From positions 4,170 to 68,169 of the forward strand of contig JAOPZS010000044.1 of NCBI GenBank assembly GCA_025963965.1: a DNA stretch of 64,000 nt. The letters are read 5' to 3'. Positions 8,733-14,804 of the stretch are shown piece by piece (positions within the stretch are counted from its first letter, which is position 1; every line of letters starts with the position of its first letter). The translations under genes were made by a program, and so were the position numbers. Under the pieces are notes generated by a model. The model did not search any database. It had not been told where the DNA came from and saw nothing but the letters and a program-made list of their open reading frames with translations. The DNA comes from Solirubrobacterales bacterium (GTDB taxonomy: Bacteria > Actinomycetota > Thermoleophilia > Solirubrobacterales > Solirubrobacteraceae).

Positions 8733-9149
8733 TCATTCCGGCAGGTGGCACACCTGCTGGGAGGCCTGCAGCACGAACAGCTCGAGTTCGCGCAGCACCT
8801 TCGGCTGTCCGACGGAGTTGTCGGCGAAGCTGACGGTGCCCTTGGCGTCGCGCAGGTGGTAGCGCAGCACAGAGTTCGGCGCAGCCGCCAGGGACAGGTG
8901 CTCGGCGGCGGGCTTTTCGAGGTCTTCGGTGATCGCGCGCGCCTTCACGATCTGCGAATCGCTGAGCTTGCCTGCGAGCTTGCCGTTGCAGCGCACGCCG
9001 CCTTCTTCGTTGACGAGCAGAGTCAGGTTCGCGTGAGGCCCGGAGCCGCTGCGGGTCACGATGAACAGGTCCGGTGCCTTGATCCCGCTGCAGCCGGCGA
9101 TCACGACGGCGAGCGGCAATGCCGCGGCAAGGCGCCGCCCGGCGTTCAC
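8733..9149 (-). CDS. Hypothetical lipoprotein
   Basis: VNAGRRLAAALPLAVVIAGC lipobox; GTG overlaps the ggt stop. Confidence 0.7.
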   Translation of the reverse strand: MNAGRRLAAALPLAVVIAGCSGIKAPDLFIVTRSGSGPHANLTLLVNEEGGVRCNGKLAGKLSDSQIVKARAITEDLEKPAAEHLSLAAAPNSVLRYHLRDAKGTVSFADNSVGQPKVLRELELFVLQASQQVCHLPE

Positions 9150-10618
9150 GCAAGCTCCGCCGCGCCACCTCGGCGCGGGTCCCCTGCGCCGGTGAGGACC
9201 CCGTCGCGCCTGAGCGCCGCCTGCACGCCGCCGAAGAACAGGTTGAGCGCGGAGAAGCTGACCGTCGGCAGCTCCCCTCCCAGCGCGGTCAGGTCGATGC
9301 CGGGCTCGGCGTAGACGGTGCCGTCCTCGAGGTGCACGCGAGGCGCCCGAACGGCCTCGTCGACTCCGAGGCCGTGATCGACGACGCCGATGATCGTCTG
9401 CAGCAGCGCGGAGCGGATGCGGTTGGAGCCGGCGCTGCCGAGCACCAGCTCGACCTCCCCGTCGCGCAGCGCGATCGAGGGGGCCATCATGCTGGGCATG
9501 CGCCGTCCGGGCGGGTGCAGGTGGAAGCCGAGCGGGTTCAGGTCCTGCTCGCCCATCACGTTGTTGAGGTGGATGCCGGTGCCGGGCACGACGACGCCGG
9601 AGCCCTCGCCGTTGGTCGCGGTCGTGCTGCACGCCATTCCGGACTCGTCGATCACGGCGATGTGGGTGGTCGAGCCGAGGCGGCTCGAGAGGAAGCCCTC
9701 CAGGAAGCGCTCCTCGGCGAGCCCGTCCAGGAACTCGGCGCCGCGCTCTGACTGCGCGGCGGCCATCGCGCCGATGATCCCCTGCAGCGACGGCGGCGGC
9801 GGTTCGCGGTCGAGCAGGCCGAGGCTGTAGGCGAGCAGGATGCCGCCGGCCGAGGGCGGCGGGTTGGTGAGGATCTCGCGGTCGCGGTAGCCGATCCGCA
9901 CGGGGTCCCGCGCCACGGCCTGATAGCCGACGAGGTCGCTCGGCGAGAGCGACCCGCCGCGCTCGGCGAGCCAGTCGCAGACGGCGGTGGCGGTCTCGCC
10001 GCGGTAGAACGGCTCGGCGCCGTCGCGGCCGAAGCGCTCGAGCGCGTCGGCGAGGTCCGGGTTCCGCATCGTCTCGCCCTCGCGCAGCACCGCGCCGTGC
10101 GGGGCCCACAGAGCGGCACACTCGGGAGTCGAGACGAGCAGATCGGAGAGGATCTCTGCGACGTAGGCCTGCGCCGCGTTGAGCGGGACGCCGTCGCGGG
10201 CCATGCGAGCGGCCGGCTCGGCGAGTCGCGAGAGCGGGACGGTCCCCCAGCGCGCGGCGGCCGCGCAGATCCCGGCGGGGGTCCCGTAGACCCCGCACGA
10301 GGCCGGGCCGATGTGGAAGACCTGCGCGGCATCGCCGAAGGACACGTCGACGGCGAGCAGGTCCGCCTCGCTCCCGTCGCCGCGGCGGGTCGGCGCCTGA
10401 ACGAAGAAGTCGAGCAGCACAGGGGCCTGGCCGGCGCCGGCGACGAGCATGTAGCCGCCGGCTCCCAGGCCGGTCAGCAGCGCCTCTGTCACGAACGACG
10501 TCAGCATCGCCGCGATCGCCGCGTCGACCGCATTGCCGCCTTCGCGCAGCACCTGGGCTCCGGCACGCGCCGTCAGGGGGTGCCCGGCGGCGACGACACC
10601 TCTGCTCGGTCCGCTCAT
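9146..10618 (-). CDS. Gamma-glutamyltransferase family protein
   Basis: GGNAVDAAIA, GLGAGG, autocleavage GSTTHIAVID, LNNVMGE, SMMAP, GDPRRGG. Confidence 0.9.
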   Translation of the reverse strand: MSGPSRGVVAAGHPLTARAGAQVLREGGNAVDAAIAAMLTSFVTEALLTGLGAGGYMLVAGAGQAPVLLDFFVQAPTRRGDGSEADLLAVDVSFGDAAQVFHIGPASCGVYGTPAGICAAAARWGTVPLSRLAEPAARMARDGVPLNAAQAYVAEILSDLLVSTPECAALWAPHGAVLREGETMRNPDLADALERFGRDGAEPFYRGETATAVCDWLAERGGSLSPSDLVGYQAVARDPVRIGYRDREILTNPPPSAGGILLAYSLGLLDREPPPPSLQGIIGAMAAAQSERGAEFLDGLAEERFLEGFLSSRLGSTTHIAVIDESGMACSTTATNGEGSGVVVPGTGIHLNNVMGEQDLNPLGFHLHPPGRRMPSMMAPSIALRDGEVELVLGSAGSNRIRSALLQTIIGVVDHGLGVDEAVRAPRVHLEDGTVYAEPGIDLTALGGELPTVSFSALNLFFGGVQAALRRDGVLTGAGDPRRGGAAELA

Positions 10619-11322
10619 CTCGACCGCCGGCAGCGCAGCTGAAGGAAGTAGGGCTTCCGCGCCGCGTTCGACAGCGGCATCGGAGCGGTCGCCGCCGCGA
10701 CATCGTCCAGGCGTGGCTCTCCCAACCGCTCGATCGCGAAACCAGCCTCCGCGAGGGCGTCCGTGTACGCGCTGAGGGGGCGGTGCGCGTCCTCGAAGAC
10801 CATCGGCACGCCGCCGCGTTCGATCTTCTCGGAGACGCGATGCTCGCGGAAGTAATCGGCCATCGCCGCATCGGGCCGATTCAGCGGATGCAGGATCGCG
10901 ACACAGAGGCGCCCGCCGGGCGTAAGCACCCGCGCCGTCTCGCGAACCGCCGTCCCGACGTCGTCCACGGTGATGAGTGACATGAACGCCACGGCGAGGT
11001 CGAACCTCCCGTCCGCAAAGGGCATGGACGTCGCCGACTCGCACACCACCGTCTCGTAGCCGCCGGCTTCGCGCGCTAGCTCAACGAGGGTCGGGGAGGA
11101 GTCCAGTCCCGTGACGCGGTGGCCGAGCCGCGACAGCTCACGCCCGACGCGCCCCTCCCCGCACCCGACGTCGAGGGTTCTCCCCCGAGCGTCGGGGAGC
11201 ATGCGCCGGAACGCGGGCCAGTTCAGAGCCTCGAAGAACTGGTCGTGCTCGGGGGTCCGCGCCCATGCCGCCCATTCAGCCGCTTTCGCCTCCCACGCAT
11301 CGCTCAAGCTCAAAGCATCCAC
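10615..11322 (-). CDS. Class I SAM-dependent methyltransferase
   Basis: LDVGCGEGR, GLDSS, FDLAVAFMSL. Confidence 0.85.
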   Translation of the reverse strand: MDALSLSDAWEAKAAEWAAWARTPEHDQFFEALNWPAFRRMLPDARGRTLDVGCGEGRVGRELSRLGHRVTGLDSSPTLVELAREAGGYETVVCESATSMPFADGRFDLAVAFMSLITVDDVGTAVRETARVLTPGGRLCVAILHPLNRPDAAMADYFREHRVSEKIERGGVPMVFEDAHRPLSAYTDALAEAGFAIERLGEPRLDDVAAATAPMPLSNAARKPYFLQLRCRRSR

Positions 11323-11405
11323 GCGCTGATTATCGGCAAGTCCGCACGCGCGGCACGTGAAGGGTGCGAGGACACCGCCCCCGCGCCGGGTCTATGTCCG
11401 CCAGA

Positions 11406-12830
11406 TCAGAGGTTCGGGATGAACTCGGGTACTTCTAGCTCGTCGAGTGAGCCGCGGCTGCGTCCTGGCGCCGTCGGTGCAGTGCCACGTTGCGCACGCA
11501 CCTCGCCGCTGGCGGGCTCGCGGAAGCGACTGGCGCTCTTGCGCCGGCCCTCGTCGCCGTAGCCGGTGGCGACGACCGTCACCCACACCTGGTCGTCGAG
11601 CTTCTCGTCGACCATCGCGCCGAAGATGATGTTGGCGTCCGGGTGTGCGGCCTCGGAGACCGACTTGGCGGCCTCGTTGACCTCCCAGAGCGAGAGGTTG
11701 TTGCCGCCGGTGATCGACAGCAGGATCGAGCGGGCGCCCTCCATCGAGGTTTCCAGCAGCGGCGAGGAGACGGCCTGCATCGCGGCCTCCGTGGCGCGGT
11801 TCTCGCCGACGCCCATGCCGATCCCGAGCAGGGCGCTCCCGGCTTCCTTCATGATCGTGCGCACGTCGGCGAAGTCGAGGTTGATCAGGCCGGGCAGCGT
11901 GACGAGGTCCGAGACCCCCTGCACTCCCTGGCGCAGCACGTCGTCGGCGACGCGGAACGCGTCGACCATCGAGGTCTGCTTGTCGAGGACGGCCAGCAGG
12001 CGGTCGTTGGGGACGACGATCAGAGTGTCGACCTCCTGGGCGAGCGCTTCGACTCCCCGCTCTCCCTGCTCGCTGCGACGGGTGCCCTCGAAGCCGAAGG
12101 GCTTGGTGACGATGCCGACGGTCAGCGCGCCGACTTCGCGGGCGATGCGCGCCACCACCGGCGCCGCGCCGGTCCCGGTGCCGCCGCCGGAACCGGCGGC
12201 GATGAAGATCATGTCGGACCCCTTCAGCAGCGCCTTCATGCGGTCGTAGTCCTCCATCGCCGCCTGGCGGCCGACGTCGGAGTCAGACCCCGAGCCCAGT
12301 CCGCGCGTGAGTTCCGCGCCGATGTGCAGGGTGATGTCGGCGGTCGACTGCTGCAGCGACTGCACGTCGGTGTTGACGGCGATGAACTCGATGCCCTCGA
12401 CCTCGGCCTCGACCATGCGGTTGACTGCGTTGACGCCGCCGCCGCCGACACCGACGACGCGGATGATCGGCTGGCCGGGGGCTGTGGCGGCGGGCGTGTA
12501 GGTCGATTCGCGCTGGTATTCCGGCGGCGCGTTGCGTGACGCCGGGCGGTCCATCACGTTCTCCGGGATCTCCGAGGAGAAGGCGTGACGCAGGCGCTCC
12601 TGCGGCGTCGGGATCTGCGGGGCCTCGGCGGGCGCCTCGGGCGTGGCGCTCAGCGCGGGGTGCGGCAGACCGGTCTTGCGGGGATGAGCGGGGGCGGGAG
12701 GCTCCTCGCGGGGCGGGGCGGAACGCTTCGGGGAAGCGGGCGCGGCCTCGGCGTCGTCGCCTTCTTCGGTCTTGCGAAACAGGGCCGCCAGTGGCCCTTC
12801 GCGCATGCTGGCACGCCTAGGATTGGCCAT
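11406..12830 (-). CDS. ftsZ: FtsZ with ~120-aa N-terminal extension
   Basis: VGVGGGGVNAVNRM, NTD, GGGTGTG tubulin signature, T7 loop GLINLDFADV, C-terminal LEVPEFI; AGGAGG SD 9 nt before ATG 12830. Confidence 0.95.
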   Translation of the reverse strand: MANPRRASMREGPLAALFRKTEEGDDAEAAPASPKRSAPPREEPPAPAHPRKTGLPHPALSATPEAPAEAPQIPTPQERLRHAFSSEIPENVMDRPASRNAPPEYQRESTYTPAATAPGQPIIRVVGVGGGGVNAVNRMVEAEVEGIEFIAVNTDVQSLQQSTADITLHIGAELTRGLGSGSDSDVGRQAAMEDYDRMKALLKGSDMIFIAAGSGGGTGTGAAPVVARIAREVGALTVGIVTKPFGFEGTRRSEQGERGVEALAQEVDTLIVVPNDRLLAVLDKQTSMVDAFRVADDVLRQGVQGVSDLVTLPGLINLDFADVRTIMKEAGSALLGIGMGVGENRATEAAMQAVSSPLLETSMEGARSILLSITGGNNLSLWEVNEAAKSVSEAAHPDANIIFGAMVDEKLDDQVWVTVVATGYGDEGRRKSASRFREPASGEVRAQRGTAPTAPGRSRGSLDELEVPEFIPNL

Positions 12831-13584
12831 GGGTGAGAACCTCCTGGGCGAGTTGCCGGTAGGACTGGGCCGCCACGCCGTCCGGCTCGTACTTCAGCAC
12901 CGACATCCCCTTCACGGGGGCCTCGGCGAAACGAACCGTCTTGCGGATGCGCGAGGCGAACACTCGGTCCCCGAAGTTTTCTTCGAGGATCTCGATCGCC
13001 TCCTTCGCGTGGATCGTGCGTGAATCCACCAGTGTCGGCAGGATACCCTCGATGTCGACACCGGGATTCAGGTTCTCCCGGATCATCGCGAGCGTGTTCT
13101 GCAGCTGGATCAATCCGCGCATCGACAGATACTCGCATTGCACGGGGACGATCACCTTGTCGGCAGCCGTCAGCGCGTTGATCGTCAGCAGCCCGAGGCT
13201 CGGGGGCGTGTCTATGCAGATGAAGTCGTAGTCCTCGAGGATCGGTTCGAAGGCCTTCTGCAGGGAGCGCTCGCGACCGATCATCGTCGACATCGCGATC
13301 TCCGCTCCGGCCAGGTCGATCGACGCGCAGGCGACATCGATCTCGCGGCGCTTGATCACCTCGCGGAGGGAGACCTTGTGGACGAGCACGTCGTACATCG
13401 ATTTCTCGAGCGTGTCCGGATCGATCCCCTGCGACATCGTCAGGTTCCCCTGGGGGTCCATGTCGACGCACAGCACGCGGTGGCCCTCCTCGGCGAATGC
13501 GGCCGCGAGGTTCAGCGTTGTCGTCGTCTTGGCCACGCCGCCCTTCTGATTGGCGAATGCGATGACCTTGGCCTTTCCTTCCAC
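12817..13584 (-). CDS. parA: ParA/Soj-family ATPase
   Basis: Deviant Walker A NQKGGVAKTTT, DMDPQGN, IDTPPSLG, VQCEYLS, TVRFAEAP; its stop overlaps the ftsZ start. Confidence 0.92.
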   Translation of the reverse strand: MEGKAKVIAFANQKGGVAKTTTTLNLAAAFAEEGHRVLCVDMDPQGNLTMSQGIDPDTLEKSMYDVLVHKVSLREVIKRREIDVACASIDLAGAEIAMSTMIGRERSLQKAFEPILEDYDFICIDTPPSLGLLTINALTAADKVIVPVQCEYLSMRGLIQLQNTLAMIRENLNPGVDIEGILPTLVDSRTIHAKEAIEILEENFGDRVFASRIRKTVRFAEAPVKGMSVLKYEPDGVAAQSYRQLAQEVLTHGQS

Positions 13585-13673
13585 GGTGGCTCCGATGCTC
13601 GTTTGCTGGAAAGCCTTCCGGTGGGTATTCGCATGGTCACGGTGGATTCCTGCATGGGAACTACGATCCCGGG

Positions 13674-14804
13674 ATGGCCCGGGGCAACAGCTCAGCCGCG
13701 CGCACGCTCCGGTCCCGGCTGACCGGCAGGCGCGTCATCGTCACGCTCGGCGCCGGCGGCGTCGGCAAGACCACCACCTCGGCGGCGCTGGCGCTGGCCC
13801 TGGCGATGCGTGGCGGCAAGGTCGCAGTCGTGACGATCGACCCGGCGCGGCGGCTGGCGACCGCGCTCGGCCTGGAGAATCTGTCCGGCGAGCCGCATCG
13901 CATCGACGCGGTGGCGCTCGAGCACGCGGGCGTCGAGCTGCGGGGGGAGCTGTGGGCGATGATGCTCGACACGAAGGCGACGTTCGATGCGGTCGTCGAG
14001 CGTCTCGCGCCGGACGAGGCGTCCCGCGAGGAGATCCTCGCCAATCCGGTCTACCGCGAGCTCTCCACGGCGGTCGCCGGCTCCAACGAGCTGAGCGCGG
14101 TGGCGAAGCTCTACGAGCTGCACGCCGAGCACGAGTTCGACGTGATCGTGCTCGACACGCCACCGTCGCGCAACGCCCTGGACTTCCTCGAAGCACCCGG
14201 GCGCCTGCTGGGGTTCCTGGAAGGCCGTGCGCTGCAGGTGTTCCTGGCTCCGGGGGGGCTGACGGCGAAGCTGTTCGGGCGCGGCACGGCGCTGGTGTTC
14301 GCGATCTTCGCGCGCGTGACGGGCGTCGACATGCTCGGCGAGCTGTCGCGCTTCTTCCGATCTCTCGGCGGCATCCTCGACGGCTTCGGCGAGCGCACGC
14401 GGGTCGTTCAGCAGCTTCTGCGCTCGGAGCAGACCGGTTTTCTGATCGTCACCTCACCGGAGCCCGAGCCGGTGCGCGAGGCGCGCTTCCTGGCCGAGCG
14501 GCTGCGCGAGACGGGGCTCGGAGAGCCGGAGCTGATCGTCAACCGTGTGCACCTCGACGGGCTCGGCGGGCGCTCTCCGGAGGAGCTCGCCGAACGGCTG
14601 ACGGACGACCTCGGCGCCGACCTCGCCAGGCGGGTCGCGTCGAACCTCGCCGACTTCGACGTGCTCGTGCGCCGGGACGAGGGGACCGTGCGCGAGCTGG
14701 AGGCACTGCTCGGCGGCCGCGAGCCGACGCTCGTCGGCCACCTAGATGAAGAGGTCCAGGATCTCCTCGGCCTCGCGCGCATCGCCGAACAGCTCGGCGT
14801 CTGA
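13674..14804 (+). CDS. ArsA/Get3-family ATPase (Rv3680-like)
   Basis: GAGGVGKTT, TIDPARRLA, DTPPSRNALDFL. Confidence 0.88.
   Translation: MARGNSSAARTLRSRLTGRRVIVTLGAGGVGKTTTSAALALALAMRGGKVAVVTIDPARRLATALGLENLSGEPHRIDAVALEHAGVELRGELWAMMLDTKATFDAVVERLAPDEASREEILANPVYRELSTAVAGSNELSAVAKLYELHAEHEFDVIVLDTPPSRNALDFLEAPGRLLGFLEGRALQVFLAPGGLTAKLFGRGTALVFAIFARVTGVDMLGELSRFFRSLGGILDGFGERTRVVQQLLRSEQTGFLIVTSPEPEPVREARFLAERLRETGLGEPELIVNRVHLDGLGGRSPEELAERLTDDLGADLARRVASNLADFDVLVRRDEGTVRELEALLGGREPTLVGHLDEEVQDLLGLARIAEQLGV

Follow-up and report, generated by a model that had tools for sequence, protein, structure and literature searches.

A translationally coupled parA-ftsZ2 pair of Thermoleophilia, in which a second FtsZ begins with a candidate ParA-partner peptide

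We analyzed a stretch of 64,000 nucleotides from contig JAOPZS010000044.1 of a Solirubrobacterales bacterium (the window), in which the gene for an orphan ParA/Soj-type ATPase (parA; 12817-13584, minus strand, 255 aa) is followed directly by that for a second FtsZ paralogue (ftsZ2; 11406-12830, minus strand, 474 aa), both as given by the open reading frame list. We conclude that parA and ftsZ2 make up a module of two translationally coupled genes, ancestral to the class Thermoleophilia. We also lean slightly toward the view that the N-terminal peptide of FtsZ2 is a ParA-partner (ATPase-activating) peptide, such that FtsZ2 polymers would be the direct cargo of nucleoid-bound ParA. An earlier note on this DNA had read the two genes as a minimal Z-ring positioning system built on a ParB-like peptide, a proposal of which we retain part.

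Gene arrangement and conservation of the parA-ftsZ2 pair

The end of parA and the beginning of ftsZ2 are interleaved in a coupling region (12817-12845, minus strand) that holds the parA stop codon together with the start codon and Shine-Dalgarno sequence of ftsZ2. The parA stop TAG (12817-12819) lies inside ftsZ2, giving an overlap of 14 nt between the genes, and the ftsZ2 ATG (12828-12830) is preceded, 9 nt upstream, by the Shine-Dalgarno sequence AGGAGG (12840-12845). The overlap, the AGGAGG and a catalytically intact FtsZ had all been described in the earlier note, and open reading frame, sequence and profile evidence bears them out.

The source genome, whose assembly is 89.7% complete, also contains a canonical ftsZ (FtsZ1, 436 bits) on contig C13, directly after murC, murB and ftsQ in the division and cell wall (dcw) cluster. 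Since this canonical gene is present on another contig, we named the window gene ftsZ2. Over the core, the two proteins share 55% identity, and each ends in a peptide of the D-x-x-V-P-x-F type; FtsZ1 has neither the N-terminal extension nor the peptide of FtsZ2. The check for a second, canonical ftsZ that the earlier note had itself proposed thus came out against a minimal two-gene Z-ring system that acts on the sole FtsZ of the cell. The genome has one SepF gene; in searches of the same assembly, we found no FtsA above the cut-off and neither MinC nor a MinD above the cut-off.

The pair is conserved well beyond the window. Nearly every genome among 40 relatives from the same order (6 families, 13 genera) has two FtsZ genes, and ParA directly precedes FtsZ2 in 28 of the 28 loci of the order with enough flanking sequence; the same gene order is found in every other family of the class that we examined, and parA-ftsZ2 overlaps of 4-17 nt recur throughout the class. 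This arrangement is far beyond chance. The earlier note had said that its claim would fail if the peptide were not conserved in orthologues, and it had suggested a survey of parA-ftsZ synteny in Thermoleophilia; the peptide is conserved class-wide, and every Thermoleophilia genome examined has the pair, the overlap and the N-terminal peptide.

Conservation of the peptide was followed at the DNA level with a degenerate pattern that encoded S-M-R-E-G-P-L-x-x-L-F, run with a reversed control on 301 genomes of the class. The pattern gave one match per genome in 158 of the 301 genomes and the reversed control gave 0; in the matches listed, third codon positions vary freely and the protein is near-invariant. 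Because the residues are invariant, the third codon positions are varied and the adjacent linker is hypervariable, we conclude from the pattern of substitution that the peptide is under purifying selection. The families without the exact pattern (f8, f10 and f11) also have parA and then a second ftsZ, with variant peptides (P-S-M-R-D-G-L-S-E-L-F-R-R-T; S-S-[IM]-K-D-S-G-L-S-x-L-F; A-S-M-K-E-G-A-L-S-N-L-F), and apparent exceptions within pattern-positive families are one-residue variants. A total of 634 database proteins carry the peptide and, among the matches listed, almost all are FtsZ with the source name 'Solirubrobacteraceae bacterium'.

In a 300-genome sample of the phylum, all sampled Thermoleophilia have two FtsZ genes, and we found no parA-ftsZ2 pair beyond Thermoleophilia among the sampled Actinomycetota. 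In a corrected quick FtsZ tree, FtsZ2 forms one clade (Shimodaira-Hasegawa-like approximate likelihood ratio test support 93) and FtsZ1 mixes with the FtsZ of other Actinomycetota; this tree, which has no outgroups, fits an old duplication with accelerated change and a transfer alike. A complete single-contig Thermoleophilia genome (G322) has two whole parA-ftsZ2 pairs (L048, L049), ~0.7 Mb apart, and extra FtsZ2 copies in two metagenome-assembled genomes, in which contamination is possible, are likewise accompanied by ParA. Our literature searches turned up no paper that connects Thermoleophilia, or genera of the class, to a second FtsZ or to a ParA-FtsZ pairing. Katayama et al. (PMC7736352) list nine type strains with a typical and an N-terminally extended FtsZ, given there with no analysis, and Pende et al. 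describe two FtsZ copies in other phyla only.

As a separate observation from this 300-genome sample, two ftsZ genes outside the class are essentially confined to three actinobacterial families, in which the copies are in tandem and have no ParA; one copy of each of these tandem pairs (L061-L070; G373, G414, G452, G509, G549) is very divergent.

FtsZ2, its ParA and the N-termini of other ParA partners

FtsZ2 is a full FtsZ paralogue that is predicted, from its intact motifs, to be GTPase-competent. It scores 411 bits against the TIGR00065 equivalog (cut-off 295), and its GTPase core and C-terminal domain (residues 119-434; 11529-12476, minus strand; TIGR00065, PF00091, PF12327) are modeled by AlphaFold2 with a predicted local distance difference test (pLDDT) score >90. 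In an alignment of 23 FtsZ2 orthologues, the GTP-binding GGGTGTG loop (G215-G221) is invariant, as are N317, D319 and D322 of the T7 motif N-x-D-x-x-D. The C-terminal peptide (residues 463-474, D-E-L-E-V-P-E-F-I-P-N-L; 11409-11444, minus strand), an anchor-binding tail of the type found at FtsZ C-termini, aligns with the tail of FtsZ1 and is kept in most families, but is not recognizable in family f7.

The core starts only at residue 119, in agreement with the long N-terminal extension and Pro/Ala/Glu linker seen in the earlier note. Residues 1-21 (12768-12830, minus strand), which are near-invariant in the class, form the candidate ParA-partner peptide. In the window, a basic pair, RAS, M and R are followed by G-P-L-A-A-L-F-R-K-T; the class-wide pattern is [KR]RAS[ML]RxGxLxxLF[RK]xT, with an invariant part of ~18 residues, and among the 23 orthologues M1, S8, L14, L17 and F18 are invariant and R6, M9, G12 and T21 nearly so. 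The disordered Pro/Ala/Glu linker (residues 22-118; 12477-12767, minus strand), delimited by alignment and AlphaFold2, is hypervariable, with no alignable columns and a length of 25 to ~150 aa across the class. With the orthologue alignment, AlphaFold2 predicts that the N-terminal 118 residues are disordered (pLDDT mostly <50), with two tiny helices at 15-18 and 76-85. The second helix (pLDDT ~69) coincides with a linker motif found by alignment (P-x-E-R-L-R-x-A-F-S-x-E-I-P type; residues 73-95; 12546-12614, minus strand), which is kept only within the window's order. The linker of family f9 carries a different motif, E-E-T-V-E-H-V-x-D-F.

The ParA encoded upstream has the deviant Walker A motif KGGVAKT, in which K14, G15, G16, K19 and T20 are invariant in its clade, as well as invariant Walker A' and B aspartates (D41, D43 and D125). 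Non-specific DNA binding by Soj depends on two arginines at its surface, R189 and R218, and equivalent residues serve other ParA-like ATPases in this way. In the clade of the window ParA, R189 and K215 do not vary and position 218 holds R or K, in keeping with the basic residues that the earlier note had placed at the Soj DNA-binding positions. The top Pfam match is AAA_31 (205 bits), with CbiA also matched, and the protein falls below the cut-off of every named ParA, MinD and RepA equivalog. It is not a MinD, with 56 bits against a MinD cut-off of 213 and a polar C-terminal tail in place of an amphipathic helix, nor a MipZ, with 52 bits over profile positions 2-137 of 262 only. Its nearest solved structure is 4PFS (204 bits), a ParA-like protein of Mycobacterium smegmatis that was deposited under the name 'cobyrinic acid a,c-diamide synthase', ahead of the Soj proteins of Thermus (170 bits) and Helicobacter (154 bits). 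Across the order, ParA is 83-98% identical, compared to 60-85% for FtsZ2; beyond the class, the best ParA matches fall abruptly to <=52% identity, with the nearest relatives at 47-52%.

We built a maximum likelihood tree of 66 ParAs, each labeled by its downstream gene; this tree, the FtsZ tree and the peptide set were built from genomes other than G331, G375, G413 and G442. Four groups were resolved: a ParB-linked group (support 100/99), a group linked to ribbon-helix-helix (RHH) proteins or ScpA (98/98; the orphan ParA2/PldP/Rv1708 type), a zinc-ribbon-protein-linked group (100/100) and an FtsZ2-linked group (100/99) to which the 21 Thermoleophilia rows all belong. Support for joining the FtsZ2-linked and zinc-ribbon-linked groups is weak (89/45). 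Thus, in the sister clades the slot downstream of parA is occupied by ParB, an RHH-like protein or a zinc-ribbon protein, and here it is occupied by FtsZ2, whose gene overlaps parA. Among 24 sampled Thermoleophilia genomes, we found no second ParA at the score level of the RHH-linked or zinc-ribbon-linked types.

In many other Actinomycetota, the closest relative of this ParA is followed by a small gene that usually overlaps it. The small protein starts with M-x-[RK]-R-A-S-L-P-G-A-[DE]-E-L-F-R-x-T and continues with a disordered linker and a conserved domain of ~60 residues, which AlphaFold2 models as strand-helix-helix (pLDDT >90). In a Foldseek search of this model against the PDB, the top-ranked structures are RHH proteins (3NO7, NikR), at E >1 and none significant; 3NO7 ranks first, and these non-significant neighbors include the type Ib ParB of pCXC100. 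The Streptomyces copy of the gene is annotated as hypothetical and has at least 8,000 relatives in the database. The RHH-type peptide was first noticed in the unpublished genome G331 (L071), and our conclusions draw neither on that genome nor on G375, G413 or G442.

We compared N-termini as profiles, using for the RHH partners a peptide profile from 17 loci in 10 families. Alignment of the FtsZ2 and RHH-partner N-termini with hhalign ran end-to-end with a score of 19.2 (probability 65%, E 6e-5), a value that was reached in 0 of 300 and 3 of 300 column-shuffle controls (means 8.0 and 8.4). The zinc-ribbon partner N-termini scored 11.7 against FtsZ2. A two-block pattern that the FtsZ2 and RHH-partner peptides have in common, [KR]-x-S-[MLI], 4-8 residues, L-F-[RK]-x-T, occurs once in the 5.5 million six-frame residues of the source genome, at the FtsZ2 start; this pattern was chosen post hoc, and shuffled genomes give 0-2 matches. 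The profile comparisons support a relationship between the FtsZ2 peptide and another ParA-partner peptide, at roughly p = 0.003-0.01. In the source genome, a profile search and a six-frame pattern search found no RHH-partner peptide elsewhere.

In the zinc-ribbon-linked orphan ParA clade (L087, L089, L093, L096, L100, L105, L113), which belongs to other Actinomycetota, the downstream gene encodes a small zinc-ribbon-like protein (E-C-S-x-C ... C-P-x-C) whose N-terminal region has the motif [GK]-[KR]-x-A-L-[FY]-S. These proteins may be a further undescribed family of ParA partners.

The source genome has other ParA and ParB genes. A chromosomal parA-parB pair lies on contig C25 beside rsmG/jag/yidC-like genes; its ParB, with an N-terminus of the type G-[ML]-G-R-G-L-S-A-I-L, is the sole ParB that adjoins a ParA. 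No ParB (helix-turn-helix or ParBc domain) lies beside the window ParA, and ParB matches are found only on contigs C25 and C40. The protein on C40 (L012:1393-3030) has 545 aa and a ParB-like N-terminal domain, is encoded next to an SSB-like gene and may be part of a mobile element. Contig C5 (L010:6370-8009) encodes a third, divergent ParA-like ATPase with an N-terminal extension of ~130 residues. It adjoins a protein that combines an FHA domain with a zinc ribbon (DUF1451), and in the ParA tree this ATPase is very divergent.

The genes around the pair in the window encode a methyltransferase, a gamma-glutamyltranspeptidase, a Lon-N domain protein, a divergent BagB-like ATPase, an unknown protein, an HxlR and a PilT. 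Profile searches of these neighbors found no fts, mur, sepF or parB gene, as the earlier note had stated, and a scan of 10400-14000 detected no promoter or terminator. A gamma-glutamyltranspeptidase gene (ggt) lies directly downstream of ftsZ2 in 35 loci (among L014-L050) from several families of the class; in the window, a class I SAM methyltransferase gene (10615-11322) sits between ftsZ2 and ggt (region 9146-11322). The BagB-like (ArsA/Get3-fold) ATPase gene (13674-14804) is transcribed divergently from parA, and is kept among the window's genus-level relatives but not class-wide.

How ParA might act on FtsZ2

Diverse activators of ParA/MinD ATPases (ParB, MinE, ParG, PomX, probably McdB and TlpT) rely on a short, basic extension at the N-terminus (PMC7993993). 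FtsZ2 fits this class of partner, with a gene that adjoins that of the ATPase, a short basic terminal peptide and a predicted disordered linker. PomX of Myxococcus xanthus, which is part of the cargo, combines a conserved basic peptide at the N-terminus with a disordered, Ala/Pro-rich region and a domain that forms filaments, and its 22-residue peptide alone activates PomZ (PMC7993993). We favor a model in which ParA holds and places FtsZ2 because FtsZ2 shares this three-part logic, with FtsZ as the polymerizing domain. Specifically, we infer binding of the peptide, ATPase activation, nucleoid binding and a role at the division site as follows. ATP-bound ParA dimers would sit on the nucleoid, and FtsZ2 polymers, carrying numerous flexibly tethered peptides, would form a multivalent cargo. 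Local stimulation of ATP hydrolysis would then drive a diffusion-ratchet like that of ParB-parS, carboxysomes or PomXY clusters, by which the FtsZ2 assembly would be moved or centered on the nucleoid. FtsZ2 might mark or seed the site at which FtsZ1 and SepF build the ring, and its positioning by ParA could either promote the ring, as PomXYZ does, or restrain it over DNA, as MipZ does. In support of this model, we found in the genome no rival partner for this ParA and no Min system, and the pair is duplicated as a unit in one complete genome.

We also considered a fuller proposal, that FtsZ2 is both activator and cargo of nucleoid-bound ParA in what would be the first adaptor-free ParA-to-FtsZ positioning system; that this system arose when, in the ancestor of Thermoleophilia, an FtsZ paralogue acquired the peptide and linker from an ancestral ParA partner of a type-Ib-like kind; and that it sets the division site in a class without Min. 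We put this forward tentatively, as a serious possibility that as a whole falls a little short of probable. An exchange of the partner's C-terminal domain, from RHH to FtsZ with the N-terminal peptide kept, is an attractive hypothesis for such an origin.

Several results weigh against the idea that the peptide is a ParA partner. The candidate that it is a ParB-like motif (L-G-[RK]-G-L-x-A-L), the form in which the earlier note had proposed it, was rejected: hhalign of the FtsZ2 and ParB N-termini gave 8.8 (probability 0.5%), equal to the shuffle mean of ~8. Of the earlier claim, the broader idea of a ParA-partner peptide fused to FtsZ is supported by the likeness to the RHH-partner N-termini, and the likeness to ParB falls. 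Local hidden Markov model searches between the FtsZ2 and RHH peptides (with the RHH profile run on the six-frame genome, and the FtsZ2 profile on the genome to which RHH partners had been added) gave half-motif matches at background only, since an indel of 1-2 residues splits the match. When aligned with BLOSUM62 to the RHH consensus, the FtsZ2 N-terminus ranks 36th, 111th or 912th of 67,969 candidate N-termini, depending on the gap penalty, so that this generic pairwise ranking is suggestive only. Moreover, the RHH-partner peptide is itself no more than a candidate activator of its own ParA, and a simple domain swap stays hypothetical because the FtsZ2-linked ParA clade lies outside, and is not nested in, the RHH-linked clade. 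No lineage examined lost one part of the module while keeping the other, and co-occurrence is therefore inseparable from common descent. Finally, the peptide is able to form a short amphipathic helix. A complex prediction for two ParA, ATP, Mg and FtsZ2 residues 1-40, run with our own alignments and without controls, gave 0.00 in both runs and speaks neither for nor against binding.

If ParA does bind the peptide, its effect could instead be negative, in the style of MipZ or nucleoid occlusion, with ParA-ATP blocking FtsZ2 assembly over DNA and rings forming in DNA-free zones. The same evidence for binding serves this alternative; MipZ, a direct inhibitor of FtsZ, is a precedent, and we found no Min system or other known inhibitor in the genome. 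However, an inhibitor would be expected to target the housekeeping FtsZ1, which is without the peptide, and the multivalent layout of tethered peptides is cargo-like. Thus, we consider a negative role unlikely.

The amphipathic potential of the peptide raises another alternative, in which it is a membrane-targeting helix by which FtsZ2 tethers itself, and ParA is merely co-expressed or acts on something else. An amphipathic turn is possible in the L-x-x-L-F-[RK] core (hydrophobic moment 0.43-0.66), AlphaFold2 predicts a short helix at 15-18, the second FtsZ of Atribacterota provides a precedent (PMC7736352), and no FtsA was found in the genome. We nonetheless regard a membrane helix as decidedly unlikely, because the candidate helix is very short (~4-10 residues), its best 11-mer has a net charge of 0 and is followed by an acidic run, and FtsZ2 keeps its own C-terminal anchor-binding tail, with SepF present in the genome. 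Moreover, such a helix would leave unexplained the invariant basic/RAS block, the strict coupling to ParA and the likeness to the N-terminus of a DNA-binding protein.

It is also conceivable, but improbable, that FtsZ2 is a ParA-guided cytomotive filament for another task, such as segregation of the chromosome or a large complex, or remodeling of cell shape or envelope. The FtsZ2 clade stands apart from FtsZ1 and other actinobacterial FtsZ, the recurrent ggt behind ftsZ2 hints at an envelope link, and the tail is unrecognizable in family f7; against this, FtsZ2 is more than half identical to FtsZ1 and far above the FtsZ equivalog cut-off, and most families keep the divisome-type tail. It is very improbable that the peptide has a different binding partner, such as SepF, FtsZ1 or (as a degron) a protease adaptor, with adjacency reflecting co-expression only. 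Binding to ParA is itself only proposed and the lineage-specific linker motif suggests further partners, but this account is at odds with the coupled translation seen throughout the class, with the place of ftsZ2 in the partner slot and with the resemblance of the peptide to the start of another ParA partner.

Positioning of FtsZ2 by ParA thus remains the reading that we favor. Division-site choice in Actinobacteria without Min or Noc is a long-standing question, and little has been established about what orphan ParA ATPases carry or which partners they use. The module offers a concrete case, in which a single ParA, a peptide of 20 residues and a single FtsZ paralogue are conserved in an abundant soil class with cultivated members. 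If the peptide does activate ParA, cytoskeletal polymers would be able to serve as ParA cargo in their own right, and partner peptides could pass between unrelated domains (a DNA binder, a zinc ribbon, FtsZ), retargeting the positioning ATPase.

Relation to known systems

MipZ of Caulobacter is a ParA-like protein that directly inhibits FtsZ. The module would resemble it in having a ParA-like ATPase act directly on FtsZ for ring placement, but MipZ inhibits an ordinary FtsZ and takes its gradient from ParB, and just half of the MipZ model is covered by the match to the window ParA. Atribacterota RT761 likewise has a conventional FtsZ and an N-terminally extended FtsZ encoded away from the usual partner gene, but there the extension is read as a membrane helix and no coupling to ParA is reported (PMC7736352).

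In ParABS systems, as in the module, the gene behind parA encodes a protein with a short peptide at its N-terminus, and the hydrophobic x-A-L-[LIF] ending is superficially alike. In contrast, FtsZ2 has no ParB domain, its profile likeness to ParB N-termini is at chance, and the genome has a separate parAB.

The orphan ParA2/PldP/Rv1708 proteins with their RHH-like partners, which are the nearest ParA relatives outside the class (47-52% identity), have the same gene order, an overlap, a basic peptide running to E-L-F-R-x-T and a disordered linker; these pairs can be likened to the type Ib pairs ParF-ParG of TP228 and ParA-ParB of pCXC100. They differ in that the C-terminal domain of the partner is a predicted ribbon-helix-helix DNA binder and not FtsZ, and the ParA clades are distinct. 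Type Ib pairs are recognized by an RHH protein downstream of ParA, and in the window the downstream gene is ftsZ2.

The PomXYZ system differs from the module in three respects: here the peptide and linker are on an FtsZ paralogue, with no adaptor gene in the operon; the window ParA belongs to its own actinobacterial clade; and the function of the module is a prediction from sequence. In PomXYZ, as we propose for ParA and FtsZ2, a DNA-bound ParA/MinD ATPase places the Z-ring positively, and its activator has the layout seen in FtsZ2 (PMC7993993).

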